64,000 nucleotides of DNA, from positions 12,280 through 76,279 of the forward strand of contig CAZUVH010000004.1 in assembly GCA_964623775.1 (NCBI GenBank), read 5' to 3'. Below are positions 3,027 to 62,693 of this stretch, piece by piece. The stretch's first letter is position 1. Every line of letters begins with the position of its first letter. Below the pieces are notes generated by a model. The model was not told the DNA's origin and made no database searches. It saw only the letters and a program-made list of their open reading frames with translations. The position numbers and the translations under genes are program-made. This DNA comes from an uncultured Candidatus Saccharibacteria bacterium (GTDB taxonomy: Bacteria > Patescibacteriota > Minisyncoccia > Phycocordibacterales > UBA2100).

Positions 3027-4328
3027 TTACTTTTTCGTCGGAGCGGGAGTTTTTCCAAACAAACCATAGCTGTAGTCAGGAAACGATGTGCGCATGGTCT
3101 GGTAGTCGTTGAATTGCGCTAGACATTCGCTGACATGCGCCGCCGCATTGCACAGTCTGCCCGCTGCCCCGCTTGTGAAGGGCTTGCCGAAGTTTTGAAA
3201 CGCTATTCTATAACAGAGGCTCTTTTCATCGGCGCTTGAAATACTCGTGCAATAGACAAGTTGTTTTTTTGCCTGAGGGTCGTCAAGATGGAGCCGGTAC
3301 ACAACGCCAAGTATGCACGAATCGCGCGCGATCTTATCAGGAAGCTGGTCGCAAAGTGTCGCGAGATTCAGGGTCGGCCCCGGATTATCGTCCCGTACAG
3401 TCTCATACCTTGCGTAGCGAAAGCCGAAGCCTTCATAGCAGTATGACCGAGACGTGCCCGTGAACGTGTCGCAAACCGCTCTTGTCTCTTGCGTCTCTCT
3501 TGGGATGTCGCGGACACCGGCTTCCAAGTATTTTCCTATCCGATACAAAAAAAGATAGCGGAAACAGGAGCGCTGATAGGGTATCGCGATGTTGTGGCAC
3601 GAATTTGCGTACGTATCGGGTGTTTCCACCGCACGCGGTGAAGTTGTAGAAAGCAACGGGAGGAAAGACTCACCGAGCCCTGAGCCCTCCATGAAGACCC
3701 CGTCATAGCAATGGATTGGAAAGTTTCCGCTTATGGCGTCACACGCGACGAGTGATTTTTGAAAATTTTGGCTGTTGACGAAAAGAACATGTCCGATCCC
3801 GTGGCAGAGCGACGGTCCTGTGGCACAATATTTCGCACCGATTTCTTTGATGGTCTCGATGTCTGCGTGAGCAATATCGTCTGCATTCGCTTCTTGTGCC
3901 CCGAGATCATTGGTTGCCGCCGCAGCGACCACCCCATGAACGCACCCAGATCCACAAGCATAGGTACATTTTGAGAGCGCATCTTCCACGGAGCCTGACC
4001 GCGCGTATGTGCGTGTGCCGATTGTGTGAGCGATATCGTGACAATAGTCCGTGATAACTTTGTCAGATGTGGCGGATTTTATGTACGTCATGAGCGATGC
4101 CGTTGAATATGTCTTAAGAAGGCGATCTGTCGTTTCCTTCAGGCAGAGATAATCCGGAATCCGAATACCGCTCTCGCTCCTCGTGAAACAATTCACATAT
4201 ATTGCAGGAGAATTGTGCGCACGATCGTACCTCGTCCATGCCGTGTCGAGAAGAAAAAAAAGGAGTGCGCATATCGCGAAACACACTGAGACCGGAAAAA
4301 TGTACGCATTCAAACGTGTACGTATCAT
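3027..4328 (-). CDS. Cys/His-rich membrane-anchored protein, paralog B (unknown function)
   Basis: 433 aa with an N-terminal TM helix. It shares the YCHDIAHTIG, CGSGCVHG and CHGIGH motifs with paralog A. Confidence 0.5.
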   Translation of the reverse strand: MIRTRLNAYIFPVSVCFAICALLFFLLDTAWTRYDRAHNSPAIYVNCFTRSESGIRIPDYLCLKETTDRLLKTYSTASLMTYIKSATSDKVITDYCHDIAHTIGTRTYARSGSVEDALSKCTYACGSGCVHGVVAAAATNDLGAQEANADDIAHADIETIKEIGAKYCATGPSLCHGIGHVLFVNSQNFQKSLVACDAISGNFPIHCYDGVFMEGSGLGESFLPLLSTTSPRAVETPDTYANSCHNIAIPYQRSCFRYLFLYRIGKYLEAGVRDIPRETQETRAVCDTFTGTSRSYCYEGFGFRYARYETVRDDNPGPTLNLATLCDQLPDKIARDSCILGVVYRLHLDDPQAKKQLVYCTSISSADEKSLCYRIAFQNFGKPFTSGAAGRLCNAAAHVSECLAQFNDYQTMRTSFPDYSYGLFGKTPAPTKK

Positions 4329-5689: not shown

Positions 5690-7060
5690 CTAATAGTGAT
5701 ACCAGTTCTGCACAGGGTAGCCAACAACTTTTGCCTCAGGCGGCACGAGTATCCAGGAATTGTGTGTGAATGGCGCGTAATCAATGTCGCACATATCCGC
5801 TTGTTCAACGATTCTGTAGAAAGGCCCGCCGTTTATTGAATGATCGAATTGCAGCGCTATTCGATGTATGTTCGGATTTTGCTTGCATTGGTTGCGCAGC
5901 TTCGACCACCATTCATACGGATCGCATCTATTCCAGGCTGTTCCCGATTCATACCGCATCTCCAGGGTGTTTTCCTTTGCGCCGAGCATTGTTGCGCGCT
6001 TCACGAGGCAATAGAAGCCGCCGCAAGGTGTTCCTTCTGAAACCTCGTAATCTCTATCAGGGTCTAATTTTTCGGATGTATACCTCGTCACGGTGGCAAT
6101 GCATTGATGATTTGCCTCAAACATAAACATGCCGTACCGATTTCCTTCGAGTGTGAGGTAGCGATCAGATGAGATACTGAACCCAAGCAGTTGAAAGAGC
6201 GCGACGATCACGACCAGACACCACCCCGCGATGGCGGCGCGCGTAAAAGGTGTCTTTGTGTGGCGGTACATCGGACCAAATAGAATAAGGAGAGGTGGGA
6301 GTGAGATCGAGGGGTAGTTATATATTACGAGGATCCCAGAATACAAATGAAAGAATACCGCAAATGCAAAACTGGCCCTTTGTAAAATCCAATTGCGCGA
6401 AAGCAAAAACCATGCGCCGACCACCTGCTCGAAAATGACGATGTTTGTCGCTATAGGGATGAGCCAATCAGGGAAAAGGGGAATACCGTCTACCAGGGAG
6501 CTAAAATATGTCCCCTCAATCCATGCGGGAGAGAATTTTACCGTAACCGACATGAAGTAGAATAATACGAACAGGAGTTTCAAAAAATATTCTTTGAAGG
6601 GAATGAAAAGAAGTGCCGCTGTGAGAAATATATGGTAGTAGTCGTACGGCCCCACATTGAGGTAATTGAGAGATAGCTCAAAAATTTTCCAAAGAAGAAG
6701 AAATAGCAAAAGCATGTGAGCGTGCACCCATTGTTTTCTCCACATGCAGTAGACGATAAGCAGCATGATTCCGTAGAGAGCCATGTACACTGTGGTGTGC
6801 GAATACCCGTACGGCAGCGCGTGTAATACGTAAAAATCGGCGCAGCTTTGGAAAAAAGGCCAGCACACGGCACCGGCATTGCGTGCGGCCTCTGCCGTGA
6901 TATTTGAGCGTATACTCCATACGAAGAATGTGACGAAAAAATAAAAAAGCATCGCTCCGAACATCCACTGGAGAACGATGCCGCTCTCAATTTCGTCGAT
7001 ACTGAAAATTTTCCGATATTTCGCCGCAAAAATTCGCCAATAGTGTCTGACCTTTCCCAT
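5690..7060 (-). CDS. Polytopic integral membrane protein with C-terminal Cys-containing soluble domain (weak HTTM/VKGC-like resemblance)
   Basis: 456 aa, roughly 9 predicted TM segments in the first 300 aa. It starts 3 bp after the SagB stop, making it the third gene of the copy-1 YcaO-SagB operon. Confidence 0.55.
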   Translation of the reverse strand: MGKVRHYWRIFAAKYRKIFSIDEIESGIVLQWMFGAMLFYFFVTFFVWSIRSNITAEAARNAGAVCWPFFQSCADFYVLHALPYGYSHTTVYMALYGIMLLIVYCMWRKQWVHAHMLLLFLLLWKIFELSLNYLNVGPYDYYHIFLTAALLFIPFKEYFLKLLFVLFYFMSVTVKFSPAWIEGTYFSSLVDGIPLFPDWLIPIATNIVIFEQVVGAWFLLSRNWILQRASFAFAVFFHLYSGILVIYNYPSISLPPLLILFGPMYRHTKTPFTRAAIAGWCLVVIVALFQLLGFSISSDRYLTLEGNRYGMFMFEANHQCIATVTRYTSEKLDPDRDYEVSEGTPCGGFYCLVKRATMLGAKENTLEMRYESGTAWNRCDPYEWWSKLRNQCKQNPNIHRIALQFDHSINGGPFYRIVEQADMCDIDYAPFTHNSWILVPPEAKVVGYPVQNWYHY

Positions 7061-7062
7061 AG

Positions 7063-7815
7063 CTAATTTTCGGTAATTGTCGCTGTACCGGACAATGTAT
7101 CCTGTCGGCTACATACAGTGATGGCATGCAGCGCCTGTTCCTGCTCCTCTTCAAGGTCAAGAAGCTGTGCGACTTTTGCGTCATCAAAACCCGCATACGG
7201 CCGTACATTGAGGTCGAGCGCGGTGCCGACGAGTAATATATTTTCGCTCATATGGCCGGCTTCGAGGAGGGCGTGAAGGTAGGCAAGATTGCCGTACTTT
7301 GCGGATGAGCGTTTCCACACGCTGGTAAAAACGATCAAGCTTGAAACGGGAAGCGTCTCGGGGTGCTTGGCGACATCTTTCATATTAAAGCCAGCCGGAA
7401 GATCCCATAGCCGCTCAAGTGCGTGTTTCGTCGGATTGTAATGAAATACGGCAGGGGTTTGTGATTCCAATGCCGTTGAGATGAGATATGTCTCCACGGG
7501 ATAGAGTCCGCCGCCAGACGGGTAATTCCGGTTCATCACGCCTGCGCGCTTTCGCAGCGCGAGGCCAAGCAATGTCCCGAATGTTTCGAGCGAAACCGGA
7601 ATCGCGGGGTCCCCGGAAAAGGCAGAGCTTCGATGTTCGAGCACACTGTATAGCGTCGTTGTGATCTGCTCGGGGTCGGGAAGCGGGATAAGCGGCATGC
7701 GAGCGTATGTCTTGTGCTGCCCCCTCGGCACGTCTTCTGGGCGGTGGGTGGCGCCACGCCTCGTGAGGCGCGCACCTCGTAATTCTGCATGCAGGTGTGA
7801 TAAAAAGGATGTCAT
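7063..7815 (-). CDS. SagB-type (McbC-like, nitroreductase-fold) dehydrogenase, copy 1
   Basis: Track ORF 7063..8016 is N-extended. The real start, MTSFLSHLH, is at 7815 and forms an ATGA overlap with the YcaO stop. The HRSSAFSG and NRNYPSGGGLYPVETY motifs are typical of SagB/ThcOx dehydrogenases. It is 62% similar to copy 2. Confidence 0.8.
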   Translation of the reverse strand: MTSFLSHLHAELRGARLTRRGATHRPEDVPRGQHKTYARMPLIPLPDPEQITTTLYSVLEHRSSAFSGDPAIPVSLETFGTLLGLALRKRAGVMNRNYPSGGGLYPVETYLISTALESQTPAVFHYNPTKHALERLWDLPAGFNMKDVAKHPETLPVSSLIVFTSVWKRSSAKYGNLAYLHALLEAGHMSENILLVGTALDLNVRPYAGFDDAKVAQLLDLEEEQEQALHAITVCSRQDTLSGTATITEN

Positions 7816-9257
7816 GAAAATGGGTGAGGTCTCTCGGCGAAAGGTTTTTTCAAGGGAGTGTACCCGAGAGCCTTGGGAACCTCGTGCCAGCGCGCTCCGC
7901 CAAACTGCTGAATCCAATCCATAAGATACGTGGGTTGCAGCTGCGGGATGACGACCATTTCTATATGCAGAGAGGTAGGATTTTTCGCAGATGTGCCGAG
8001 CGAAACGGAAATGCACTCGAACTCATTTTTCCTGCACCATTGCGTGATTCGCTGCAATTGCTGCTCCTCATCATCGTTATCCCATTCTGAGTGCCCGATC
8101 TCGATTTCCTTTCCCTGAATCAGAAATTCAAGTTTTTTGGCATTTTCCGGAACGCTCCAATAGTATACGCGTTCGCGATGCCCGATCTTTTCGACGGGCG
8201 TACTGTTATCCCACGTATTTCCCTCCTCGAACCATGAGCGACAGAAGCGGCGTGCGCGTATCGCCTCGGTCGTCGCTTTTTCAATTGCATAGGGGAGTGA
8301 TCGATGCGCTTTAAGGCCGATCGAAAAACGGGGTGCGCCGCCACTCAGATCTTCGGTCACGACGGCCACTGCGTGAGTCGGCGCATCGGTGGGGAGCTGT
8401 ATGACATGTGTCTTGAGTCGGTATCTCTCGCATTTTGCGACGCTCCTTGCGAGCGACGGAGATTGAGCGCACAGGGGAGCGAGCGCAATGCGTGGGAGAG
8501 TCATCTGATTGAGCCACATGATCATGTACGCCTCGCGCTCGATCACTTCGAGCGCGCCAGCAAGTCTCGCTCCGGATTGTGTGCGCCATGTCGCGAGGCC
8601 GTTTGTATTTTGCTGTCGGATCACTGGCTCTTGTGCGCCTCCCGGCAAATTACGACGTCGTATACCGGCCACGACCTGTGCCGGTATATACACGCTGCCT
8701 CCGTGCACTAGCGAAGTGCCCTGGATCCAAAGATATTCCGCGTCGGGGCGCAGCTGTCGTTCTGGGTACTCCGCACGCTGCTCCTCCGAAAATCCAACAA
8801 TATCTTCCGGTGGAACAAAGAGCCCCAACTTTCCGATCTCGTCCTTCGTCGCACGCGTCGGATTCATAAAGTAGTCGTCCTGCGTCATCCAGATATATCG
8901 CTCAAGCGCCTCGGAAAGAGTGGCGTAGAGCGCATCTGCGTCACTTTCCCATGTGGTACCCCCAACCTGATGATTTGATTCGTTATTACAAACGGCAGTC
9001 CAGTTTCTCATGGGCGGCTCATCAGGGAAAAAGAGGCTCGTCTGACCGAATGATTTTATGACCCCGCTTTCTCTCAAGAGTGCGGCGAGTTGTAGCGGCT
9101 CGCGTAAATCTGGGCGGCCAAACGGGATTTTTTGTACGTCGAACATGACCCTCGCGCCGAGCCTGTTCTCGACATAGTTTGCGAATGCTGCGAGCGCCTT
9201 ATTTTTCAAGTCGGATCCAGTGAGTGTTTGGCTGAACGGCACTGCATCAAAAATCAT
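7812..9257 (-). CDS. YcaO-domain protein (azoline-forming cyclodehydratase family), copy 1
   Basis: 481 aa. It carries the YcaO signatures ALYATLSEALERYIW and QQNTNGLATW, and is a paralog of 16149..17588. Confidence 0.85.
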   Translation of the reverse strand: MIFDAVPFSQTLTGSDLKNKALAAFANYVENRLGARVMFDVQKIPFGRPDLREPLQLAALLRESGVIKSFGQTSLFFPDEPPMRNWTAVCNNESNHQVGGTTWESDADALYATLSEALERYIWMTQDDYFMNPTRATKDEIGKLGLFVPPEDIVGFSEEQRAEYPERQLRPDAEYLWIQGTSLVHGGSVYIPAQVVAGIRRRNLPGGAQEPVIRQQNTNGLATWRTQSGARLAGALEVIEREAYMIMWLNQMTLPRIALAPLCAQSPSLARSVAKCERYRLKTHVIQLPTDAPTHAVAVVTEDLSGGAPRFSIGLKAHRSLPYAIEKATTEAIRARRFCRSWFEEGNTWDNSTPVEKIGHRERVYYWSVPENAKKLEFLIQGKEIEIGHSEWDNDDEEQQLQRITQWCRKNEFECISVSLGTSAKNPTSLHIEMVVIPQLQPTYLMDWIQQFGGARWHEVPKALGYTPLKKPFAERPHPFS

Positions 9258-9322: not shown

Positions 9323-9351
9323 TTGACAGTCGGATGGATCACCACAATAAT
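9323..9351 (+). promoter_or_regulatory. Putative sigma70 promoter for the precursor-peptide operon (TTGACA-N17-AATAAT)
   Basis: TTGACA at 9323-9328 and AATAAT at 9346-9351. The ATG at 9364 is 12 nt downstream. Confidence 0.35.
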
Positions 9352-9363
9352 GCATATACGTAT

Positions 9364-9675
9364 ATGGTAATCCTTGAAAAAACGAGTAGCGGGGTGACGG
9401 GGATTTTTAAGAAAATTGCAAGCGCAGCCCTCGTGGTATCTGGGTTTGTGCTGATATTTTTCACGACGCATTCAAAATCTTCGGGAGTCACGCAATCGAT
9501 TTACGGTGCGGACGTAGCGCATGCGGATGTACCATCTGGCGACAGCGCAAGCAGCTCAGGCGACGCATCTGGCAGCGGCAGCGGCGCGAGCGATTGCGGC
9601 GGTGGCGGTGACTGCGGAGGTTCTGATGGTTGCGGAGGCTGTGGCGACAGCGGTTCTGATAGTGGGGGGTACTAA
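9364..9675 (+). CDS. Candidate RiPP precursor peptide, copy 1 (hydrophobic N-terminal helix, Gly/Ser/Cys-rich C-terminal core)
   Basis: Track ORF 9313..9675; the start conserved with copy 2 is MVILEKTSSG at 9364. The C-terminus SGDSASSSGDASGSGSGASDCGGGGDCGGSDGCGGCGDSGSDSGGY has 6 Cys in a Gly/Ser matrix and is microcin B17-like. It is divergent from YcaO. Confidence 0.55.
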   Translation: MVILEKTSSGVTGIFKKIASAALVVSGFVLIFFTTHSKSSGVTQSIYGADVAHADVPSGDSASSSGDASGSGSGASDCGGGGDCGGSDGCGGCGDSGSDSGGY

Positions 9676-9693
9676 ATCGTGGTGCCGAAAACA

Positions 9694-10806
9694 ATGTCAC
9701 ACATTTTAAGACTTATCGTTTGGTTGCTCGCACTATTAATTCCGATAATAGTCGTTTATGGCGTCTACAACCTCGTTATACTGAAAAGTGCACAACCCGT
9801 TCCCTCTGATTTGGTCCCTATCTTGCAGGCAATCCGAAATGGAAACGAACAAGCCGCCATTGATCTCTACGAGACCATTCAGAATGATCCGAGCAAGAAC
9901 GCCGGTGATAAGGCGCTCGCGACCCTTTATATTTTAAATACGAGCTACAGTTTATCCGGCGACGGCGACGACAGTCTGGAAGAGGTGAAGGCGTTGAAAA
10001 AAATAATCAATGATCCGCTGATAATCAAGAAGGTGCGAGCGGCAGCCGTCAATGTCCTTGGGAATGAGTACAATGTTTCAGGAAAGAATCTAGACGTTGT
10101 CACCGAGATTTACAAAGACGAACCATTTCGCTCATATGAAGTTCCCGGGGATCCGGAACTATCATCCTTGAACCTTCAGAAGTGGTCATACGACATGTTT
10201 CCTTCGTCTGCTGCGGCAATAAGCGTCGCACAGATCGCCTCTGGACGATATTTTTCCCATCCAGATCAGCCGGCGAGCACCACAGCGGCCTACGTGGCTA
10301 TGGCCGAGGATTACCTGGGCAAGGCTGAAGCAGCCGTCATCGAGGAGCTGGAGGGCAATCCTCAGTGGTATGTGGCCAGCCATCGATACATGATATACCG
10401 CTCAATGCGAGCGATCACAATCGGTCGTCTGGCTATAACAAAGGGGGAACCGTACCGCAGTGCATACCGCAGAGAATTCGATGATTTTTTCGCACATGCG
10501 GAGGGGAAGAAAAGCGCCGCAGCAAGTAAAGCAATTCTCAGTACACGCTTTCAGTATGCCAGAGTTCTTGCCGCCGATAAGGACGAGATCAACGAAAAAA
10601 TACAGCTCGACCAGCTGGCGCAAGCACTCAACTCGCTTCAGGATCCCGATAACTATCCTCTCGTACTCCTTTTTAAGAACGAGTATTTAAACCAACCAAC
10701 TGGCCTGACGTGGACCGCTGTAAAACGGATGGCCACAGTATCGCCGGATTTCAAAGTTGCGGTTGAAAGGCTCACTGTTCTGGCTTCGACCCACGCTTCG
10801 CAGTGA
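9694..10806 (+). CDS. Membrane-anchored protein of unknown function (conserved in both cassette copies)
   Basis: About 370 aa with an N-terminal TM helix. It is a paralog of 18017..19105 (shared motifs EIYKD.PF.SY.VP.DP.LS.LN, AAAKG, SPD.K.AV). Confidence 0.5.
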   Translation: MSHILRLIVWLLALLIPIIVVYGVYNLVILKSAQPVPSDLVPILQAIRNGNEQAAIDLYETIQNDPSKNAGDKALATLYILNTSYSLSGDGDDSLEEVKALKKIINDPLIIKKVRAAAVNVLGNEYNVSGKNLDVVTEIYKDEPFRSYEVPGDPELSSLNLQKWSYDMFPSSAAAISVAQIASGRYFSHPDQPASTTAAYVAMAEDYLGKAEAAVIEELEGNPQWYVASHRYMIYRSMRAITIGRLAITKGEPYRSAYRREFDDFFAHAEGKKSAAASKAILSTRFQYARVLAADKDEINEKIQLDQLAQALNSLQDPDNYPLVLLFKNEYLNQPTGLTWTAVKRMATVSPDFKVAVERLTVLASTHASQ

Positions 10807-11615
10807 AAAGTAGGACGATACATATTGCCCGTAAAAAGATCGTCTCGATAGGGGTGATTGTTCTCGTATCTCTCGGAGTTTTGGTTGTGTTGTACCCCGA
10901 GGTCGCGCGCGGAGTATATGAAGTCGTTTCGACACGGTTGTTTCCAAATGCTGATCGTGAATTTGCATACGGCGAACGACATTTTGATACATACAAGCCG
11001 GAAGCGTATAGCATAGACCTTGCCGAATACTTTTTTCGACAGGCGGAGAAGCATGATCCAAAAATCCCGTATCTCTACCATGAAATAGCCCGTGTCGATT
11101 TTCTGAAAGGCAATCTCCATAAGGCGCTTATCGAGATCAATATTCAGATTCAAAGGCACGGAGATAAGACGCCGAATTCGTACTACATTCGCGGGCTGAT
11201 CGAAGGGTACATAGGGGATTATGTCGCTGCGGCGAAGGATTATGAGCGGTATTTACAATTCGACCCGACGAATTGGGCGGCGATCAACGACTACGCGTGG
11301 GTCCTCCTAAAAGCGGAGCGTTATACAGACGCCGAACGAGCGATAGTAAAAGGTCTCACGTATTTCCCCGACAATCCGTGGCTCCTCAACTCGTATGCCA
11401 CAGCGCTCTTTGAGCTTGGAAAACATGAGCGCGCCCTCGTCAGCGCAAAAAAAGCGCAAGAACGGATGCTGCACCTGACGGAAGGAGAGTGGTCGCGCGC
11501 ATATCCCGGGAATGATCCTGAGATTGCAGGGCAGGGAGTATCCACATTCAGGACAGCGGTAGAGGCGAACGTGCGCACTATTGAGGCAGCTATCGCGTCA
11601 AGCACGAAAAAGTAA
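10803..11615 (+). CDS. TPR-like repeat protein, membrane-anchored (conserved in both cassette copies)
   Basis: 270 aa with an N-terminal TM helix. It is a strong paralog of 19111..19911 (QGYEVVSTRL, PYLYHE.AR..FL, IQRHGD.TPNSYY, AYPGNDP). Confidence 0.5.
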   Translation: MKSRTIHIARKKIVSIGVIVLVSLGVLVVLYPEVARGVYEVVSTRLFPNADREFAYGERHFDTYKPEAYSIDLAEYFFRQAEKHDPKIPYLYHEIARVDFLKGNLHKALIEINIQIQRHGDKTPNSYYIRGLIEGYIGDYVAAAKDYERYLQFDPTNWAAINDYAWVLLKAERYTDAERAIVKGLTYFPDNPWLLNSYATALFELGKHERALVSAKKAQERMLHLTEGEWSRAYPGNDPEIAGQGVSTFRTAVEANVRTIEAAIASSTKK

Positions 11616-11716: not shown

Positions 11717-13231
11717 ATGCAACATCCTCATACAGCAAAGAGTCGGACGTGGCATCTCGTCCGGCGTCAGCTTGCAGTCGTCGCGGGGTTGAGTATTTTT
11801 GCGTTCGCACTTTTTGTTGGCGTGAACTCTTTCGATGCGCGCCAGACCAACCTTTCTCCCGAGGTCAAATTTACCGATGTCTCCGCGAACGGCATGCAGA
11901 TAGTCCCCGCGTCTTGCCCCTCGTCGCCGCACTATGCGGGTGAGTGCAGTGCTTGTACGATAAGCGCCTCGCCATCGACGATATTAGAAGGTCAAAGTAC
12001 AACATTGACATGGGCAACGCCCGTTCTTGATCCTATATACACGGCCAGCGGATCAATCAGCCCGACCGTCGGCGCCGTTGCAGGATCAGGCAGTACCGCC
12101 GTAACCCCATCTGTCACTACGACATACACATATTCAGGCACTTATTACTTTGGCGGTGCCCCGACGGCGAGTACGTACACGTGTGCGACGACGGTCACGG
12201 TTAATGCGTTACCGCCCGCAGCCGTAACGAATCTTACGGTATCGACCCCTGCACCTGGCACATCGGCGACTCTCACCTGGACGGCTTCTCCTGGGGCAAC
12301 CAACTACTACATCAACGTCAACAACAAAATGAACGCATGGGGGCCAACTCTCTGCAATGGCACAATAAACGACGGCAATACAAATGACCTGTGCTATGCC
12401 TCGACTGCGGGTACATCGTATACATTTCCATACTGTATTCCGGGATCAGATTACTGGGCGGTCGTATACGCAAGTAATTCGGGAGGAACTTCCGCCGGTA
12501 CAGTCATAGATTTCTCTTGTCGACCCGGCCCGGTGACCAACCTTACAGCGTCGTGTCCTGCGCCAGGGACTGCGGCAATCTTGAATTGGACCGCCGTTTC
12601 TGGGGCAACCAACTACTACATCAACGTCAACAACAAAATGAACGCATGGGGGCCAACTCTCTGCAATGGCACAATAAACGACGGCAATACAAATGACCTG
12701 TGCTATGCCTCGACTGCGGGTACATCGTATACATTTCCGTACGGCATCGGAGGATCAGATTACTGGGCGGTCGTATACGCAAGTAATTCGGGAGGAGTTT
12801 CGACCAGTACAGCCGTAGATTTCTCCTGCGTTTCGCCGTGTGCCGACAGTTACTTCTGTCAGGGCAATGATCTCATGCATCAAGATACGGCTTGTAATAA
12901 TACGGTCAGCTTGATATGCAGCTATGGATGTTCAGCCGGCGCGTGCATTGTGCCGAACCCCACGATCAATCTCTCTGTCACGCCACTGCTCCTCCAAAAG
13001 GGTGAGATGTCACAGGTGGTGTGGAGCACTACCGACATGAGCTCTTGCACCGTGACGAGTAACAACGGCGCTTCGTGGAGCGGGCTCTCCGGCTCGCAGA
13101 CCTCGCCGGCGATACAAATGCAAACGATCTTCACTGTCCGCTGTACTTCGGTCATGGATACCACGGTCTCGCAGGCTGCGACAGTCAATATCATCCCGGT
13201 ATTCTGCGAACCGGGGACACCGGAGTGCTAA
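11717..13231 (+). CDS. Secreted/membrane-anchored Cys-rich repeat protein (two near-identical ~100-aa repeats; conserved C-terminal domain)
   Basis: 504 aa with an N-terminal TM or signal segment. An internal tandem repeat (nt ~12240-12530 vs ~12540-12830) encodes VTNLT.S.PAPGT.A.L.WTA.SGATNYYINVNNKMNAWGPTLCNGTINDGNTNDLCYASTAGTSYTFPY. The C-terminal domain is shared with 19923..21548. Confidence 0.55.
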   Translation: MQHPHTAKSRTWHLVRRQLAVVAGLSIFAFALFVGVNSFDARQTNLSPEVKFTDVSANGMQIVPASCPSSPHYAGECSACTISASPSTILEGQSTTLTWATPVLDPIYTASGSISPTVGAVAGSGSTAVTPSVTTTYTYSGTYYFGGAPTASTYTCATTVTVNALPPAAVTNLTVSTPAPGTSATLTWTASPGATNYYINVNNKMNAWGPTLCNGTINDGNTNDLCYASTAGTSYTFPYCIPGSDYWAVVYASNSGGTSAGTVIDFSCRPGPVTNLTASCPAPGTAAILNWTAVSGATNYYINVNNKMNAWGPTLCNGTINDGNTNDLCYASTAGTSYTFPYGIGGSDYWAVVYASNSGGVSTSTAVDFSCVSPCADSYFCQGNDLMHQDTACNNTVSLICSYGCSAGACIVPNPTINLSVTPLLLQKGEMSQVVWSTTDMSSCTVTSNNGASWSGLSGSQTSPAIQMQTIFTVRCTSVMDTTVSQAATVNIIPVFCEPGTPEC

Positions 13232-13270
13232 GACTAGAGTCTCGGGGGCAATGATTCGTACAGGAAAGAC

Positions 13271-14905
13271 TCACCGCACCTTTTTCAGGCAATACAATTC
13301 GTTGGCTACCGTGCGCGCAAAAATTGATTTTGTTTTTTCGTTGTACGCAATTTTACTCATGAAGCGCTCACTTGCCTGGAAATAGCCGATCTTTGTGCCG
13401 CACTCAACATCTATTTCATACAGACATCCGTCGTTGGAGCCGAGAAAGAGGGAATCGTCCACAATAGCGGGCGCGCCGAATATCCTCCCACGCGTCTCAA
13501 ATGACCATCGTCTCTTTGATGTCTCGATATCGATCGCATAGAGCGATTTGTCGAGCGAAGCTACGTACACGGTGCCTTCGTGAACGAGGGGTATGGAGTA
13601 GATCGCGGCACCGGTCTCGTATGCATAGAGCGGCTCTCCCGTCTGCGCGGAGAGTGCATACAGCTTTCCGTCCATTGAAGCAAAGAAAATGATTCTTCTT
13701 TTCGGATCGTACGCTGGAGCGACCTTGATATCGCCCCTGGTCGCATAACGCCAGAGCAATTGGCCCGTTTTTGCATCGTACGCATAGCAGATGCCGTCGT
13801 TGCTCCCGATCACGACGATCCCTTCTTCTCGTATATAGAGGGGTGACCCATGGGTGAGTGCGGGGGATTTCTCTTGCCAACGCCTTGCCCCGGTGTGCAT
13901 ATCAAGCGCTACGATCCCACCGCGTTTGCCAAAGAGTCCGAATTCCAAACCGATATAGATGAGGCCGAGATCCGGCGCGAGCGACGGGGAAGAGCCGACC
14001 CAGTCGGCGTCGTCGTAGCGCCATTTTTCCGTGCCTGTCTTCGCGTCGAGTGCGTACACGACGCCGTCATATGCGCCGAAGTACAAGATTCCTTTGTGAA
14101 GCGCGGGAGTCGAAAGAATCCCTTTTCCTTCCGGATATTTTCCTACAGTGAATTCCCAGGCGACCTCGCCACTTCTCTGGTCGAGCGCGCGCATGACGCC
14201 GTCGTCACACCCGAGATACACGAGCGTGTCGTCGATGACCGGTGCGGATTTCTGCACGACGGTATGAAAGCTCGGGTTGGGCCCTGTATATCGCCACACC
14301 GTCTCGAATTCGCTCCCTTTTTCCGGCGGGGTGTTTTTGAGGAGCGGCATCCCGAAATCTTCGAGCGTAAAGAGATTATGTACGGCGACACCCTTCTCTT
14401 CGAATTTTTTGTACGCGTCTTCTGATCTAAACGCGAGAATTGTGAATATATCGGTGACTTTTTTTCCTGTGTCAGCAAGCACGGCCAACTGCTTTTCAAA
14501 TGTAGAGCCTGTATTGATGAGATCGTCGACGAGGACGATCGGATCATCGGTGAGCGTGCCTTCGATCTGACGCATGAGACCCTGGCGTTTGCGCGATTTG
14601 CGGATATAAAAACCATTGACGGGGGTCCCGCGCTCGACTCCTTTCATCACGATCGCAGAGACGAGCGAGATCGCGGCCGTTTCCATTGCGCCGACCTGAA
14701 AGGGGAGCTTCGGGGCGTACAGTTCCCAAAAAATCTCGGCATATCGATTGAGCCACTGCGGCTGGAGCATGAGCGCGCGGAAATCGAACAACCAATCCTC
14801 ACGTCTTCCCGACTGCTCGGATGCGACGATGACCGCCCCCGATTCTCTTTTTACGAGGACTACGGACTCTATTGCCTGTCGTAGATCGTCGTATTTTTTT
14901 TTCAT
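13271..14905 (-). CDS. Fusion protein: type I phosphoribosyltransferase domain + PQQ-repeat beta-propeller
   Basis: 544 aa. The N-terminal PRPP-binding motif IVLVDDLINTGSTF (PRTase) is followed by repeated YALDAKTG..W, YAYDAKTGQLLW and YALSAQTGEPLY PQQ/BamB-type propeller blades. Confidence 0.65.
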   Translation of the reverse strand: MKKKYDDLRQAIESVVLVKRESGAVIVASEQSGRREDWLFDFRALMLQPQWLNRYAEIFWELYAPKLPFQVGAMETAAISLVSAIVMKGVERGTPVNGFYIRKSRKRQGLMRQIEGTLTDDPIVLVDDLINTGSTFEKQLAVLADTGKKVTDIFTILAFRSEDAYKKFEEKGVAVHNLFTLEDFGMPLLKNTPPEKGSEFETVWRYTGPNPSFHTVVQKSAPVIDDTLVYLGCDDGVMRALDQRSGEVAWEFTVGKYPEGKGILSTPALHKGILYFGAYDGVVYALDAKTGTEKWRYDDADWVGSSPSLAPDLGLIYIGLEFGLFGKRGGIVALDMHTGARRWQEKSPALTHGSPLYIREEGIVVIGSNDGICYAYDAKTGQLLWRYATRGDIKVAPAYDPKRRIIFFASMDGKLYALSAQTGEPLYAYETGAAIYSIPLVHEGTVYVASLDKSLYAIDIETSKRRWSFETRGRIFGAPAIVDDSLFLGSNDGCLYEIDVECGTKIGYFQASERFMSKIAYNEKTKSIFARTVANELYCLKKVR

Positions 14906-14910
14906 ACCGC

Positions 14911-14977
14911 GTGCTATTTTTTGCGGCTCGCGAGAGTTCGAAATGAAAGCTCGTTTTCATTTCGTTCGAGCGAAGAC
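14911..14977. repeat. ~65-bp palindromic intergenic repeat, family member 1 (inverted relative to the copy at 30906-30970)
   Basis: GCGGCTCGCGAGAGTTCGAAATGAAAGCTCGTTTTCATTTCGTTCGAGCGAAGACGCAAAAA. Its reverse complement matches 30906-30970 at ~85%, including the CGAAATGAA..TTCATTTCG hairpin core. Confidence 0.5.
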
Positions 14978-15046
14978 GCAAAAAAGGTTTAAATCTTTAT
15001 AGCATGAGGCATACACATGTGTAATGCCCTGTTTCTGTCTCATACA

Positions 15047-15080
15047 CAAAAAAAGACCGCCCTATGCAAATGGGGCGGTC
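15047..15080 (-). terminator. Rho-independent terminator of copy-2 YcaO-SagB operon
   Basis: GACCGCCC-tatgcaaat-GGGCGGTC hairpin followed by a T-run on the minus strand. Confidence 0.55.
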
Positions 15081-15099
15081 TGAAAGTTCTTAGGAAGAT

Positions 15100-15345
15100 T
15101 TATTTGCAGGGTGGTCGGATCCTGCAGCTAAACGGGCCGTTCTCGCCGATACCGTTCCAGTTGCAGGTGCTCTTGCACGTCCTGTAGGCAACCCCACAGT
15201 CCGGTGAGGGCATTTTGGCCGCCCGACGTGCCTCGCACGTCGATTTGCCTGCCTCACACGAGGGAATTGTATTGCAGAACTGCGCTGACGCAGGGGACGC
15301 CACCACCACGGCAGCAACGAACATCGTCGCAAGAAGTACACGCAT
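15100..15345 (-). CDS. Small secreted Cys-rich protein (8 Cys), last gene of copy-2 operon
   Basis: 81 aa. Signal peptide MRVLLATMFVAAVVVASPASA, then CNTIPSCEAGKSTCE...CKSTCNW...FSCRIRPPCK. Confidence 0.45.
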   Translation of the reverse strand: MRVLLATMFVAAVVVASPASAQFCNTIPSCEAGKSTCEARRAAKMPSPDCGVAYRTCKSTCNWNGIGENGPFSCRIRPPCK

Positions 15346-15441
15346 GTCTCGCTCCTTCCTATCGCACGCATTTTGCGCACGATCTCTAATGCAGATTAGA
15401 CCCTTTTAGGGGCACAAGTCAATTTTTTTGCGCCGGCAGCT

Positions 15442-16152
15442 TCATCCTTTGCACACGGTGATCGTATGCACCGTTTGCTCCTCACTTTCGTCGAGATCAA
15501 GAAGCTCCGCAATGCGCTCATCATTAAATCCGGCAAAAGGTCGAAGGTTGAGCCCGAGCGCGTTCCCGACGAGGAGGATATTTTCGCCCATGTGACCTGC
15601 TTCCAGAAGCGCTACCGTGTACGTGAAATCCCCGTATTTTGTGGAGGAGCGTCTCCATACGCTCGTAAAAACGAGAAGCATTGAAGGGGGAAGTGACTCA
15701 GGATATGCGGCAAGCTGTTTTAGATCGTAGTCCTCGGGAAGGCTCCAGAGGCACTCGAGCGCATGATCGCTCGGATTGTAGTGAAATACTGCTGGTGCCT
15801 GTGATTCGAGTGCAGTCGATACGAGGTACGTTTCGATTGGATAGAGCGCGCCTCCCGAAGGGTAGTTGCGATTTACGGAATTTGGTCGCCTCTGTAGCGA
15901 CCCGAGCAACGTGCCGCATTCTTGCAGAGTGAGAGGCGCGCACGTATTTCCTCCAAAAGACGAATGACGGTGTGTGATAGCGTCCTGTAAATCCACACCG
16001 AGTTTCGCCGGCTTCGGAAGCGGGATCTGCTTCATGCGAGCGTAGCGTTTGTGCATCCCCGTGGGCACGTCTTCGGTACGGTGCGTGGCGCCTCGATGCG
16101 TCAGAAGTGTGCGACGCAAATCTGTATGCAGGTGAGATAAAAATGATGTCAT
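15442..16152 (-). CDS. SagB-type dehydrogenase, copy 2
   Basis: 236 aa. It starts with the same MTSFLSHLH as copy 1 and carries the HRHSSFGG and NRNYPSGGALYPIETY motifs. It has an ATGA overlap with the YcaO stop. Confidence 0.8.
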   Translation of the reverse strand: MTSFLSHLHTDLRRTLLTHRGATHRTEDVPTGMHKRYARMKQIPLPKPAKLGVDLQDAITHRHSSFGGNTCAPLTLQECGTLLGSLQRRPNSVNRNYPSGGALYPIETYLVSTALESQAPAVFHYNPSDHALECLWSLPEDYDLKQLAAYPESLPPSMLLVFTSVWRRSSTKYGDFTYTVALLEAGHMGENILLVGNALGLNLRPFAGFNDERIAELLDLDESEEQTVHTITVCKG

Positions 16153-17588
16153 AAGAAAGGGTGCGGTCTCTCTCCAAACGGTTTTTTGCGCGGCGTATAC
16201 CCAAGTGCTTTTGGAACGTCATGCCACCTGTCACCGCCGAATTGTTGCACTGATTCATTGAGATATGTCGGCTGGAGCTCGGGAATCACCATCATCTCTA
16301 TGTGCAAGTGCGTTGGGTTTTTTTCTGAAGAAGTGAGAGGGACTGAAATACACTCGTAATCCTTATCCTTGCACCACTTAATAATCCTCTGCAAGTGCTC
16401 TTTCGTCGAGTCATTATCCCATGGACTCTTTTGGATCTCGATTTCCGGACCCTGCACCATAAATTCCAGGTGCTTGGAATGTTCGGGCACTGCCCAGTAG
16501 TAGACACGATCCATGTGGCCTATTTTCTCGATTGGAGTGCTCACGTCCCACTGGTTGCCCGCACTCATCCATTGTCTGCATAAACGATTCGCTCGGATTG
16601 CCTCAGCCATGGCTTTTTCGATGGCATGGGTGAGAGAGGTGTGAGCATTGAGGCCTATCGTGAAGCGGGGCGCGTTTCCCGATACATCCTCCATAATGAC
16701 CGCTACAGCATGGACTGGTGCATCTGTCGGTAGTTGAATTACGTGTGTCCTGAATTGATATCGCTCGCAGAGCGCGACCGCGCGCCTGAGAGTTTGCGAC
16801 TGTGCGAGTAGTGGAGAAAGTGCGATGCGGGGAAGTGTCAGCTGGTTGAACCACATGATCATGTACGCATCCCGTTCGATAAGCTCAAGCACCCCCCCAA
16901 GCCGGGCCCCGTTTTGTGTCGGCCATGTCGCAAGCCCGTTGGTGTTTCGCTGGCGGATAAGAGGTTCCTCTTTGGAACCCTGCCAATTAAGCGACGAACA
17001 GCTCACTGTCTGCGCTGGGATGTAGACAGAGCCTCCCTGTGTAAGGGATGTGCCCTGTATCCAGAGGTACTCTGCGTCGGGACGGAGGCGACGTCGGGGG
17101 TACTTTTCGCGCTGTTCGTTTGTAAAGCCCACAAAACTTTGCGGAGCTACGTGCCGTCCGTACTCAGCTATTTGTTCAGTAGTTGCCCGGACCTTACCAG
17201 TGAAATAGTCATCTTGAGTAAACCAGATGTAACGCTCAAGAGCCTCCGCAAGTGCCGCATACAAGGCGCCCTGGTCACTATCCCAGGAATAGCCGTTTGC
17301 CATGTGGTCTGTGGTGTCGTTGCATATGGCATACCATCCCCACATGCGCGGATCATCGGGACTATACGAGACTCTCCCGAGAGATTGTATGACACCAGCC
17401 TCTTTTAAAAGGGTGGCGAGTCTGAGCGGCTCTTCTAGGTCTGGGCGGGAAAAGGGGATATTGCGTAGATCCTTCACTATTTTGACGCCAAGATTTTTTT
17501 CCATGTAATCCGTCAGGGTTCTTCGCGCTCTGCTTCGTATATCGGCGCTCTCCAGTGTGTCGCGGTAGGGCACCGCATCGAAAATCAT
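16149..17588 (-). CDS. YcaO-domain protein, copy 2
   Basis: Track ORF 16149..17798 is N-extended. The start conserved with copy 1 (MIFDAVPY) is at 17588. It carries ALYAALAEALERYIW and RQRNTNGLATW. Confidence 0.85.
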   Translation of the reverse strand: MIFDAVPYRDTLESADIRSRARRTLTDYMEKNLGVKIVKDLRNIPFSRPDLEEPLRLATLLKEAGVIQSLGRVSYSPDDPRMWGWYAICNDTTDHMANGYSWDSDQGALYAALAEALERYIWFTQDDYFTGKVRATTEQIAEYGRHVAPQSFVGFTNEQREKYPRRRLRPDAEYLWIQGTSLTQGGSVYIPAQTVSCSSLNWQGSKEEPLIRQRNTNGLATWPTQNGARLGGVLELIERDAYMIMWFNQLTLPRIALSPLLAQSQTLRRAVALCERYQFRTHVIQLPTDAPVHAVAVIMEDVSGNAPRFTIGLNAHTSLTHAIEKAMAEAIRANRLCRQWMSAGNQWDVSTPIEKIGHMDRVYYWAVPEHSKHLEFMVQGPEIEIQKSPWDNDSTKEHLQRIIKWCKDKDYECISVPLTSSEKNPTHLHIEMMVIPELQPTYLNESVQQFGGDRWHDVPKALGYTPRKKPFGERPHPFL

Positions 17589-17595
17589 AGCGAGA

Positions 17596-17601
17596 TTATA
17601 G
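17596..17601 (-). promoter_or_regulatory. Consensus -10 (TATAAT) 7 nt upstream of the YcaO ATG, suggesting a leaderless transcript
   Basis: Reverse complement reads gctgcTATAATctcgctATG. Confidence 0.35.
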
Positions 17602-17649
17602 CAGCATCCACGCTGTCCGATACATTTTGCGACTATCCACCGAATGTCA

Positions 17650-17678
17650 TTGATGCATGGTCGCGTTCTTGTAATAAT
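17650..17678 (+). promoter_or_regulatory. Putative promoter for precursor operon copy 2 (TTGATG-N16-TAATAAT)
   Basis: Positioned like the copy-1 promoter. The ATG at 17691 is 12 nt downstream of the -10. Confidence 0.3.
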
Positions 17679-17690
17679 GTACACATCTGT

Positions 17691-17993
17691 ATGGCCATCA
17701 TTGAAAAGACAAGAAGCGGTGTACGAACCTTTTTTGAAAAAATCGGACAAGTGGGACTTATCACCGTTGGACTCGTGTCGCTCTTTTTTGCCCCTCATCC
17801 TAAATCATCCGATGTCGCACAATCAGGCGAGCATCTATTTGGTGCCGGCGTCGCGCATGCAGACGCGCCCTCAGGAGATTCGGCAAGCAGCGCCAGTGGC
17901 GATGCTGGCTGTGGTACCGGCGGCTGCGGTGCCGGCAGCAGCGATAGCGGTGGCGGCAGCGATAGTGGCTGCGGCTGCGGTGGGTGCTACTGA
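17691..17993 (+). CDS. Candidate RiPP precursor peptide, copy 2
   Basis: 100 aa: MAIIEKTRSGVRTFFEKIGQVGLITVGLVSLFFAPHP...GAGVAHADAPSGDSASSASGDAGCGTGGCGAGSSDSGGGSDSGCGCGGCY. It has the same architecture as 9364..9675, including the conserved VAHAD.PSGDSASS junction. Confidence 0.55.
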   Translation: MAIIEKTRSGVRTFFEKIGQVGLITVGLVSLFFAPHPKSSDVAQSGEHLFGAGVAHADAPSGDSASSASGDAGCGTGGCGAGSSDSGGGSDSGCGCGGCY

Positions 17994-18016
17994 GTTGAAC
18001 AAATTTAATCTTACCC

Positions 18017-19105
18017 ATGTTGCATACTACAAAACTGATCAGTTGGCTCGCTGGACTATTGCTTGTTGGGACGCTTTTTTACACGGTCAGTTATTTTTCT
18101 GGCACTCTGCGATCAAAAAGCGACGCGCCTTTCTATACAGTAGATCTTCTTACCGCAAAAGCAGGGGGCGATAACGTGGTGGCACTGGCACAATACCGTG
18201 CAATTCAAGATGATCCCAGGAAAACAAGCGAGGAAAAAGCGCTTGCCGAACTTCTCATCGTCGGCGCTGAGTTCAGCCAGACAGGTGATGTGAAAGCTCG
18301 ATTGCGTGAAATTCAGAAGATGAAAGAAATTTCAATGGACGCCTCGCTTTCTGCAGGTGTCCGCGCAACAGCGATGGCGATTCTTGGCAGCGAATACAGC
18401 GTGTCTGGCAATGATCCGGTTGTCTTTGCCGAAATCTACAAGGACCCACCTTTTGATTCGTATCTTGTGCCAAATGATCCCCACCTCTCGGCGCTCAATA
18501 TAGAGAAAGCGTCGTACGCTATAGTGCCCACGCCCGTCGCTGCCGTGAAAATTGCTCACATCGCATCTGGCCAGTATTTTGCCAATCCAAATCAGTCGGC
18601 AAGTACTAGGGCAGCCCATATTGCCATGACAGAGGAGTATATCAATAAAGCCGATGTGGCTGTGATGAGAGAGATACGCGGGGCCGGCTATACAGAAGGT
18701 GATCGATATATGTTTTATCGCGCACTGCGGGCGGTCAGTATCGGCCAACTGGCGGCCGCGAAAGGACAGCTCGAGGGGGGCGCTTATCGCAAGGAATTTG
18801 AAGACTTTTTCACGCTTGCGCAGTCGAAGAAAAGTTTTGCTGCAAAAAATTCACTCCTGAACGTTCGTTATGAGTATGCTTCGATTCTTGCGGCAGATGA
18901 GGATACTGCAGCCGAAAAAGCACAGCTTGATCTGCTCGCCCGGGAATTGAACGAGCTTCCCAATCCCAAAATCTACACCCTTGTTTTGCTCTTAAGAAAC
19001 GAGCACACGTATCGCCCCACGGGTCCGGTCTGGGTTGCGACAGAAAAAATGTTTAAAGTATCGCCGGATCTTAAGGCTGCGGTTAACAAGATCATCGCGT
19101 CCTGA
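18017..19105 (+). CDS. Membrane-anchored protein of unknown function (paralog of 9694..10806)
   Basis: 362 aa with an N-terminal TM helix. Motifs are conserved with the copy-1 protein. Confidence 0.5.
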   Translation: MLHTTKLISWLAGLLLVGTLFYTVSYFSGTLRSKSDAPFYTVDLLTAKAGGDNVVALAQYRAIQDDPRKTSEEKALAELLIVGAEFSQTGDVKARLREIQKMKEISMDASLSAGVRATAMAILGSEYSVSGNDPVVFAEIYKDPPFDSYLVPNDPHLSALNIEKASYAIVPTPVAAVKIAHIASGQYFANPNQSASTRAAHIAMTEEYINKADVAVMREIRGAGYTEGDRYMFYRALRAVSIGQLAAAKGQLEGGAYRKEFEDFFTLAQSKKSFAAKNSLLNVRYEYASILAADEDTAAEKAQLDLLARELNELPNPKIYTLVLLLRNEHTYRPTGPVWVATEKMFKVSPDLKAAVNKIIAS

Positions 19106-19110
19106 CCACA

Positions 19111-19911
19111 GTGAAAAGCAGACGGCTACATTTTGACTGGAAGTGGGCGGTGCGCATTTTCCTCGTAGTCGCGATTGTCGCGCTCATCTTCCCAGAACAG
19201 ATTCGTCAGGGATACGAAGTGGTGTCGACTCGACTGCTTCCCGACGCACAGCGCGAATTTCAGTACGGTCAACGACACTTCAATGCTGCGGACCCCGTAG
19301 CATACAACGTCGATTTGGCAGAATATTTTTACCGCCAGGCAGAAAGGCATAATCCCAGCATCCCGTATCTGTATCATGAGTTGGCGCGCATTAGTTTTCT
19401 CAGGGGTAGGTTCGAGCAAGCACTTCTCGAAATCAACCACCAAATCCAGCGTCACGGCGACAGGACGCCAAATTCGTATTACATGAGGGCACTCATCGCG
19501 GGATATAAAGGCGACTACGATATAGCGATACGCGACTATGAATACTTTTTGAAACTCGTGCCCACTAGCTGGGCGACTGCCAACGACTATGCATGGGTCC
19601 TTCTCAAGGCCGACAAGCCCGAGAAGGCTGCGAAAGTCACGGGAGATCTCTTGAAAGTACATCCCGAAAATCCGTGGCTCCTGAGCACCCACGCCATAGC
19701 GCTCTATGAAATGGGCGATTTGCACGGGGCGCTTCGAGTAGCAAAGGAGGCCCTGGCTGCCTCGGCAAAGATAACTGAAGCGCAGTGGCTCAAGGCGTAT
19801 CCTGGAAATGATCCGCGCACCGCACAGCAGGGGATTGAGACGCACCGCACGTCTATCGAAGACAATATACACAAGATAGAAATAGCAATTGCCGAGGATG
19901 CGATACAATAA
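19111..19911 (+). CDS. TPR-like repeat protein (paralog of 10803..11615)
   Basis: 266 aa, about 55% identical to the copy-1 protein. Confidence 0.5.
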   Translation: MKSRRLHFDWKWAVRIFLVVAIVALIFPEQIRQGYEVVSTRLLPDAQREFQYGQRHFNAADPVAYNVDLAEYFYRQAERHNPSIPYLYHELARISFLRGRFEQALLEINHQIQRHGDRTPNSYYMRALIAGYKGDYDIAIRDYEYFLKLVPTSWATANDYAWVLLKADKPEKAAKVTGDLLKVHPENPWLLSTHAIALYEMGDLHGALRVAKEALAASAKITEAQWLKAYPGNDPRTAQQGIETHRTSIEDNIHKIEIAIAEDAIQ

Positions 19912-19922
19912 AGTGAAATAGT

Positions 19923-21548: not shown

Positions 21549-21549
21549 T

Positions 21550-22056: not shown

Positions 22057-22202
22057 GACAGCCCCTAGCGAATTTGCATTTTCAGACACACTAGCGTATA
22101 TTGCCTGCACGTCCTGCTTCGCACGGACAAGCCATGTCCCCATACGGGACCACTGGAGTGAGCCACTGGCCCGCTTCAGCGCGGCCATTTTCATTCAAAA
22201 AT

Positions 22203-55690: not shown

Positions 55691-55694
55691 TTAG

Positions 55695-62622: not shown

Positions 62623-62693
62623 CAAACGTTACTTCAAGTTGGATGTGCATTTCTGGATTGCAGCTTCGCTCATGCGTGCAACAATAAGGCAAT

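Follow-up and report, generated by a model that had tools for sequence, protein, structure and literature searches.

Two Cys-rich exoproteins with shared ends

The window analysed here, a stretch of 64,000 nt from an uncultured Candidatus Saccharibacteria bacterium (assembly GCA_964623775.1, contig CAZUVH010000004.1, positions 12,280 to 76,279), encodes two Cys-rich exoproteins, A (11717-13231) and B (19923-21548), both on the + strand. The two open reading frames (ORFs) lie where an earlier note on this DNA had placed them and are intact, with 504 aa and 22 Cys for A and 541 aa and 50 Cys for B, sizes that hardly deserve the word 'giant' used there. Here, we found that A and B are paralogous members of a well-delimited family, which the libraries searched do not annotate and which is built of known kinds of domains. 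The family is defined by its conserved ends, namely an N-terminal helix with a short motif directly behind it (N-motif) and a C-terminal head, and the middle is a dispensable, interchangeable and fast-evolving stalk.

The AlphaFold2 model of exoprotein A consists of beta-sandwich domains in a string (mean predicted local distance difference test score, pLDDT, 75), with FN3/Ig ectodomain arrays on top of the Foldseek matches (E down to 1e-11); an NCBIfam scan of A gave no match. The protein starts with a membrane helix (aa 12-36, 11750-11824), which is helical in the model, has basic residues ahead of it and may serve as a signal anchor or an uncleaved signal peptide; no A-x-A cleavage site after the helix is consistent across the family alignment. 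It continues with the N-motif (aa 47-77, 11855-11947, S-x-E-x-x-F-x-D-x-S-x-x-G-x-x-IVPASCPS...C), modelled at pLDDT <50, and a first Ig-like domain (aa 78-166, 11948-12214) at pLDDT >90. This domain and the C-terminal Ig-like domain are probably of one type: in A (P0001 among the family proteins) the C-terminal profile has two matching stretches, of which the output located only aa 377-498, and we would place the second in this first Ig-like domain. Two FN3-like Cys units follow, and the conserved head (12827-13231) closes the protein with a six-Cys knot (aa ~371-410), a PKD-like Ig domain (aa ~411-495) and the tail IIPVFCEPGTPEC, at pLDDT 91-98.

Exoprotein B, which is found identical in protein and DNA in the Logan contig L044, has the same ends. 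The N-terminal helix lies at aa 13-32 of its AlphaFold2 model, the N-motif at aa 42-83 (20046-20171, likewise pLDDT <50) and the head at 21141-21548, with knot, PKD-like Ig domain and the tail IIPTFCEAGSPGC at pLDDT 91-98. The Cys repeats in between had been read as two of 43 aa and ten of 13 aa; in fact, there are three six-Cys modules of 55 aa (165 nt) and nine free hairpins of 15 aa (45 nt). Two of the modules stand in tandem (20238-20567; Tandem Repeats Finder period 165, 83% matches) and repeat comparison gave a third, diverged one (20799-20963); the adjacent pair shares 81% DNA identity and the third copy 60%, with the pattern at aa 112, 167 and 299. The free hairpins have the pattern C-x2-G-x7-C (CPAGQVWNGSACV type) and are arranged as five (20583-20807, beta-hairpins in the model, pLDDT 75-82) plus four (20979-21143, pLDDT 72-87), and the final hairpin of each 55-aa module has this same pattern.

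The middles of A and B cannot be aligned, whereas over the last ~135 aa the two proteins share 58% identity (BLASTP E=6e-48). The C-terminal domain of ~130 aa that the earlier note had seen in both proteins is thus shared indeed, but it consists of two parts, the knot and a widespread Ig-like domain. Structure prediction, named there as a check, gave a confident model with a fold like that of the PKD domains of the Clostridium collagenase ColG and of archaeal S-layer proteins. For the head of B, Foldseek returned the ColG PKD domain at a target-normalised TM score of 0.62-0.68, a root-mean-square deviation of 2.9-3.5 Å and ~20% identity (E 4e-3 to 1e-2). In contrast to PKD domains, the head of the family is preceded by the Cys knot, its terminal copy ends in P-x-F-x-E-x-COOH and it has no match to the PKD profile; indeed, Pfam and NCBIfam scans over A 371-504 and B 407-541, PKD profile included, gave no match at all. 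Matches of B to the SoxY/SoxZ fold (E >=3e-3) were taken as generic likeness of Ig folds and not as a sign of a sulfur carrier function, and a PDB sequence search with B gave chance-level matches only.

The tandem repeat of gene A

Gene A had been described as carrying a near-perfect duplication of ~290 bp that encodes a module of ~97 aa with four Cys. The direct tandem repeat is real, with a period of 309 nt and copies that are 84% identical overall, and near-perfect identity is confined to a core of 197 nt. Each unit (unit 1, 12215-12523; unit 2, 12524-12832) encodes 103 aa with four Cys, and 86 of the 103 residues are the same in both. The assignment to FN3 holds in sequence as well as in fold. 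Pfam fn3 (PF00041) matches A at aa 169-259 with E=3.2e-7 and 30.9 bits, above the gathering cutoff of 25, in a single reported stretch, i.e. one of the two units; the AlphaFold2 model is rich in beta-strands over aa 170-370 (pLDDT ~65-78), and FN3 arrays top its Foldseek matches.

The core of unit 1 (12291-12487) shares 96.4% identity with 12600-12796 and includes two perfectly matching runs, one of 139 nt (12291-12429) and one of 45 nt (12443-12487), and the flanks of the repeat outside the core are only 60-67% identical. Third codon positions agree at 62 of 66 sites in the core and at 15 of 37 in the flanks. Because such identity at silent sites is not explicable by selection on the protein, it indicates that the core was recently homogenised, via gene conversion or a partial re-duplication, inside an older pair of units. 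What had been called a recent duplication is therefore old in its flanks and recent in its core only, and the repeat of gene A is an ordinary case of domain duplication plus gene conversion.

Is the pair of units a product of the assembly? The perfect runs exceed the k-mer sizes of short-read assemblers, protein A is on record from one contig only in a collection of 15 billion proteins, and metagenome scans for protein A and for exact matches to a 35-mer from the repeat core returned no independent copy and no close relative. A collapsed or chimeric repeat, with a true gene of one unit or of some other number, would fit these points. However, two Logan contigs from other runs (SRR12822863 and SRR12816583), built with a different assembler from that of the window, are 100% identical to it and both end at 12320, which lies 30 nt inside the perfect core of unit 1. 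If the Logan k-mer size is 31, as we take it to be, 30 nt is k-1, and the only repeated 31-mers of the window are the two core segments of gene A. A break at this point is what a graph of k=31 should give, because the next k-mer has two predecessors; in read sets of independent origin, the core is thus joined to two or more different flanks. This check bears on the flanks and not on the copy number. In addition, both units have diverged, in-frame flanks and each forms a complete domain of 103 aa with four Cys, and the relative P0013 likewise has two such FN3 units. We thus consider an artefact quite improbable. The third contig, L044, reproduces 13199-21749 exactly, repeats of gene B included; the window has no internal repeat at the two ends of this contig, which may reflect strain variation or drops in coverage.

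A family with conserved ends and a variable stalk

Scanning one genome per GTDB species for the pattern G[LM]xIVPASC[PE] yielded 40 loci. Nearly all are labelled as members of the Candidate Phyla Radiation (CPR), i.e. Kaiserbacteria, Paceibacterota/Parcubacteria, Nomurabacteria and auto-labelled 'Saccharibacteria', and one short contig is auto-labelled Gammaproteobacteria. Homology searches found a few dozen relatives, all unnamed or 'hypothetical protein'; no Pfam or NCBIfam model matches the family consistently, A and B included, and our literature searches found no paper on it. In an alignment of 13 sequences the ends are conserved and the middle is non-alignable. A and B have all the marks of the family, namely the N-terminal helix, the N-motif, knot plus Ig domain, and a tail of the variant F-C-E-x-G-x-P-x-C.

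The N-motif follows directly after the helix and reads S-x-E-x-x-F-x-D-x-S-x-x-G-L-x-I-V-P-A-S-C-P-S-x-P...C, with invariant columns at S47, E49, F52, S56, G59, I62, P64, A65, S66, C67, S69 and C77 in the numbering of A. Residues of the motif that lie beyond the retrieval pattern are 93-98% conserved among 46 non-redundant locus sequences. We speculate that the N-motif is linear and takes up a fold only when bound to a partner, as would be typical of a segment with pLDDT <50 in both models. A bacterial lipoprotein signal was considered for it and rejected, with I-V-P-A-S-C having a Pro at -3 and the Cys standing ~25-30 residues beyond the helix.

The head, in contrast, is folded with confidence: a knot of ~37 aa with six conserved Cys precedes an Ig domain of ~85 aa (pLDDT >90), and the Cys, W and Q-T columns are invariant in its alignment. 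The knot is present two to three times over in some relatives. The Ig module is far more widespread than the family, and an exhaustive profile search found it in 10,316 proteins at E <=1e-3, with up to 45 copies per protein. Matches to the full profile of knot plus Ig are mostly proteins of 127-530 aa, and a few are larger (P0125, P0162).

At the very end stands the tail P-x-[FWY]-x-E, present in 33 sequences, 32 of which stop exactly one residue past the invariant E; in A, B and a few others it is extended to F-C-E-x-G-x-x-x-C. No hydrophobic segment comes after the tail, which sets it apart from classical C-terminal sorting signals: types such as LPXTG, PEP-CTERM and GlyGly-CTERM were rejected on this ground (32/33), and no NCBIfam sorting domain was found. 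In some large proteins without the N-motif (P0038, P0072, P0085, P0125), the last Ig copy likewise ends in I-P-x-F-x-E-x.

Between these ends, nearly everything varies. Family members range from 228 to 1461 aa with the conserved ends kept. In the shortest (228-250 aa), a Tyr/Gln-rich linker is all that stands between helix plus N-motif and knot plus Ig domain, and the longest has Gly-rich and PA14-like segments, PA14 being recognised by eye and not by a profile. P0007, an ortholog of B with 78% identity, has ten free hairpins instead of the nine in B, and P0002 is B-like at its N-terminus and A-like at its C-terminus. The modules are also shared with other proteins: the FN3-Cys unit of A is 58% identical to the C-terminal module of the prepilin-type protein P0009, and hairpins of the B type recur in the prepilin-type proteins P0178 and P0201 and in proteins annotated as EB or DUF5874. 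The repeats which the earlier note had stressed are thus part of a dispensable stalk, because the middle is optional, shared with other surface proteins and variable. The modular plasticity proposed there is borne out by these lengths and by the additional hairpin of P0007. Surface exposure is likewise supported, with an N-terminal membrane helix in both proteins, even Cys counts (22 and 50) and modules that are found fused to prepilin N-termini as well.

Several known classes resemble parts of this architecture. As a chain of beta-sandwiches, the model of A is like the FN3/Ig surface arrays of fibronectin, receptor ectodomains and Aureispira GhpA. Unlike these, the exoprotein family adds an invariant juxtamembrane motif and a six-Cys knot with a terminal Ig domain of fixed end, its gene neighbourhood is fixed and its FN3 units carry four Cys each. 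The 15-aa C-x2-G-x7-C units of B resemble EB, DUF5874 and EGF-like Cys hairpins, and homologs of the repeat region are annotated as PF19202, PF01683 (EB), PF01826 (TIL) and PF04942. B itself scores 25.4 bits with DUF5874 (PF19202), below the Pfam cutoff of 27.1, and the Cys-rich EphA4 ectodomain is a weak fold match of B. In contrast to those repeats, the hairpins of B form the stalk of a membrane-anchored bacterial protein. Type IV pilin-like proteins with cargo share modules with A (FN3-Cys, P0009) and B (hairpins, P0178 and P0201), but in A and B the conserved motif comes after the membrane helix and not before it. A classification of A or B as type IV pilin was rejected, with no N_methyl (PF07963) match in either of them and such a match in P0009.

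Gene neighbourhood and a possible envelope module

Each exoprotein gene stands in a run of genes of one direction, in the order precursor, TM375, tetratricopeptide repeat (TPR) protein and exoprotein, which is last in cluster A and second-last in cluster B. The genes are separated by gaps of 1-23 nt, plus one overlap of 4 nt and one gap of 101 nt. Cluster A contains a predicted precursor of 103 aa (9364-9675) with a hydrophobic helix, an AHAD motif and a Gly/Cys/Ser/Asp-rich core, TM375 (9679-10806; the Logan gene call starts at 9694), which is membrane-anchored and helical and matches no family, and a TPR protein of 270 aa (10803-11615) with an N-terminal membrane helix and matches to Pfam TPR families. 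In cluster B, the precursor (17691-17993, 100 aa), TM375 (18017-19105, 362 aa) and the TPR protein (19111-19911, 266 aa, 54% identical to that of A) are followed by the exoprotein and by p168 (21550-22056), which has a signal peptide and a C-terminal membrane helix and which, in the window, is present after cluster B only. Divergent from the run and upstream of it, on the - strand, lie a YcaO gene (A, SagD-like, 7812-9257; B, 16149-17588) and a gene for a SagB-like nitroreductase (A, 7063-7815; B, 15442-16152). The YcaO copies match PF02624 with E=1e-41 (A) and 1e-46, both nitroreductases match PF00881 with E ~1e-12, and the SagD-family model TIGR03604 scores 164 bits on YcaO A, below its cutoff of 219. 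With identities of 63% for YcaO, 62% for SagB, 54% for TPR, 47% for TM375 and ~65% in DNA, the two clusters are old paralogs. The genomes of L008, L015 and L022 likewise have the cluster twice, in part or in full, so that duplication of the module is recurrent in the clade.

The order of these genes is conserved among the related loci. A TPR gene stands directly upstream of the exoprotein gene in at least 31 of 37 loci, with overlapping ORFs in L001 and L003, a p168-type gene (150-170 aa) directly downstream in 25 of 35, and rplC and rplD come next in 27 of 33. YcaO was found in the upstream flank of 21 of the 27 loci with at least 7 kb of upstream sequence. Precursor orthologs with an AHADAP motif and a Gly/Cys/Ser/Asp-rich core are present in at least ten loci (L002, L005, L008, L009, L015, L017, L030, L034, L036, L039); A-H-A-D-A-P after the precursor helix resembles an A-x-A cleavage site. 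TM375, p168 and a 456-aa membrane protein encoded at 5690-7060 (- strand) belong to no consistent Pfam or NCBIfam family, and ten TM375 orthologs gave scattered weak TPR-like traces. The 456-aa protein is a multi-pass membrane protein with a Cys-containing C-terminal domain, and its gene adjoins SagB/YcaO in at least nine related loci. Between the two clusters, at 13271-14905 (- strand), a phosphoribosyltransferase-like domain is fused to a PQQ-type beta-propeller; this gene is near YcaO in 16 of the 27 loci with enough upstream sequence.

In three loci rpsJ was found upstream of the cluster (L003 910-1347, L023 1-747, L031 485-949), so that the block lies between rpsJ and rplC. The span from rpsJ to rplC includes YcaO in L003 and L031; rpsJ (S10) and rplC (L3) are normally adjacent. 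In the window, rplC (22101-22835) comes right after cluster B, and no rpsJ is present within 22 kb upstream.

The block is probably co-transcribed from a promoter ahead of the precursor. Sigma-70-like sites lie at 9323-9351 (+, TTGACA-17-AATAAT, 11/12) for precursor A and at 17650-17678 (+, TTGATG-17-AATAAT, 9/12) for precursor B, and both end only 12 nt before the start codon, which would leave a very short 5' leader or none. The counts of a promoter and terminator scan were not above shuffled expectation, and it is only the positions of these two sites that are suggestive.

With YcaO, a SagB-type nitroreductase and an adjoining Cys/Ser/Gly-rich precursor, the neighbourhood resembles clusters for linear azole-containing peptides (LAP) or thiazole/oxazole-modified microcins (TOMM). 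LAP clusters with YcaO and nitroreductase have already been published for CPR bacteria (Sharrar et al. 2020, PMC7298704). The clusters studied here differ from characterised LAP clusters in that the precursors have a hydrophobic N-terminal helix and that we noticed neither an E1-like partner nor an ABC exporter nor a protease in them. Pfam and NCBIfam scans of the cluster proteins showed no E1-like or RiPP recognition element (RRE) domain, be it as a separate C protein or in a fused CD enzyme, the first ~100 aa of YcaO being covered by these scans alone, and no immunity gene was noticed in the cluster either. A TPR/Ig-stalk envelope module is not known from characterised LAP clusters.

Based on the conserved ends and on the conserved order of the genes, we speculate that A and B are CPR-restricted, disulfide-rich, membrane-tethered stalk proteins whose ends dock onto co-encoded envelope partners and whose stalk is swapped, a reading to which we assign a probability of about 0.5. 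The TPR protein, TM375, the exoprotein and p168 each have one terminal membrane helix, and by the positive-inside rule the bulk of each protein would be outside the membrane. The conserved ends would dock to the membrane-tethered TPR protein, which may be translationally coupled upstream, to TM375 and to p168, and the TPR protein would be the prime candidate for binding either the linear motif or the free C-terminus. TPR domains are known as receptors of free C-terminal peptides, as in Hop and CHIP with the EEVD-COOH end of Hsp70/90 and in PEX5 with PTS1. The family resembles these pairs by its acidic end E-x-COOH and the TPR gene directly upstream; this is an analogy only, and unlike in Hop, CHIP and PEX5, the exoprotein and the TPR protein would both be extracytoplasmic. 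The stalk, in turn, would hold the head away from the membrane and may evolve via tandem duplication, intragenic gene conversion and exchange of modules with surface proteins, pilins included.

A functional link of the exoprotein to the predicted azole peptide, be it in export, tethering, presentation or immunity, is plausible. At the cell surface, the envelope complex may export, tether or present the peptide, a suggestion drawn from synteny: the block is co-directional and probably co-transcribed with the precursor of the YcaO/SagB cluster. As for the proposal that the exoproteins are partners or targets of the modified peptide, conserved synteny is what speaks for a partner, and nothing in our analysis supports a target. 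In L002, genes for a DsbA-like thioredoxin and a rhodanese (7927-9159) stand between the TM375-like and TPR genes; such a pair fits disulfide formation or sulfur chemistry in an envelope module.

Several points weigh against this reading of a docked stalk. The variable length of the stalk argues against a head that touches a membrane-bound partner. The conservation of the residues in G[LM]xIVPASC[PE] is partly circular, because the loci were retrieved with that pattern, and the C-terminal tail is also found on a few larger proteins without the N-motif. The matches to TPR families are generic, and membrane topology and signal-peptide cleavage were read from the sequence itself. Finally, YcaO is missing from the upstream flank in 6 of the 27 loci, which means that a link to the azole peptide either need not exist or need not always be local.

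The same six loci also speak for a rival reading, in which the exoprotein would act alone as an adhesin or in attachment to the host and evolve under diversifying selection, and its conserved neighbours would share nothing but expression in a highly transcribed region beside the ribosomal protein operon. The hypervariable middle, the PA14-like segment seen by eye in the largest member and modules that are common to pilin-like and giant surface proteins also suit an adhesin. However, most of the 40 species keep the genes in the order TPR, exoprotein, p168, with ORFs that overlap or abut. Strong conservation of a linear motif that is unfolded by itself is usually the mark of a binding site, and the shortest members lack any adhesive cargo; we regard a lone adhesin as unlikely, if still worth weighing. 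Alternatively, the exoprotein may bind or sequester the mature azole peptide through its head, in the role of a receptor or carrier at the surface or of a self-immunity protein. It lies downstream of the precursor and in the same direction in both clusters, YcaO is present in most of the flanks, no exporter or immunity gene was noticed, and the head is the best-conserved folded part. The basis of this idea is purely syntenic, though, thousands of proteins contain the Ig part of the head as a generic repeat, and some genomes have the triad but no YcaO next to it, so that we hold the idea to be improbable. The exoprotein might even be a substrate of YcaO/SagB itself, with P-A-S-C-P-S-S of the N-motif heterocyclised before export. 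YcaO enzymes act on residues of the Cys/Ser type, and the N-motif is an invariant, unstructured stretch with many Cys and Ser residues. Dedicated Gly/Cys/Ser-rich precursors directly beside YcaO in most loci, the invariance of both C67 and C77, which suggests a disulfide loop, and the lack of an evident leader-like recognition sequence make this highly improbable.

If the exoprotein is a docked stalk, its wider role can be outlined with much greater reserve. It is conceivable, as a long shot, that TM375, TPR protein, exoprotein and p168 together with YcaO, SagB and precursor form one conserved surface apparatus of Paceibacteria-type CPR bacteria, set into a junction of the S10 ribosomal operon, rpsJ-rplC, that is otherwise nearly invariant, that P-x-F-x-E-x-COOH is a new C-terminal signal read by an extracytoplasmic TPR protein, and that the stalk displays or hands over an azole-modified Gly/Cys peptide at the interface to the host cell. 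For CPR bacteria, which spend their lives attached to other cells, knowledge of the surface machinery hardly extends past type IV pili. The family defined here is recurrent and comes with diagnostic motifs, a minimal core and an identified dispensable part. It travels with fixed envelope partners and, in the majority of genomes, with genes predicted to make an azole peptide, in a position directly ahead of rplC. It thereby offers concrete candidates for how CPR bacteria might handle a peptide natural product at the envelope and how they might build variable surface stalks. As it stands, the family is of moderate interest, and only proof that envelope module and azole-peptide genes make up a single apparatus would raise this to high.

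Elsewhere in the window, two paralogous Cys/His-rich, membrane-anchored proteins of 375 and 433 aa without a Pfam match are encoded at 1856-2983 and 3027-4328 (both - strand), adjoining a gene for a fused ATP sulfurylase/APS kinase (218-1855). A tRNA-Ile gene with the anticodon TAT, which is uncommon in bacteria, lies at 62550-62623 (+ strand), and a tmRNA gene with the tag peptide ANKTARGVLSPIQVNNLGLVFA at 55694-56083 (- strand).

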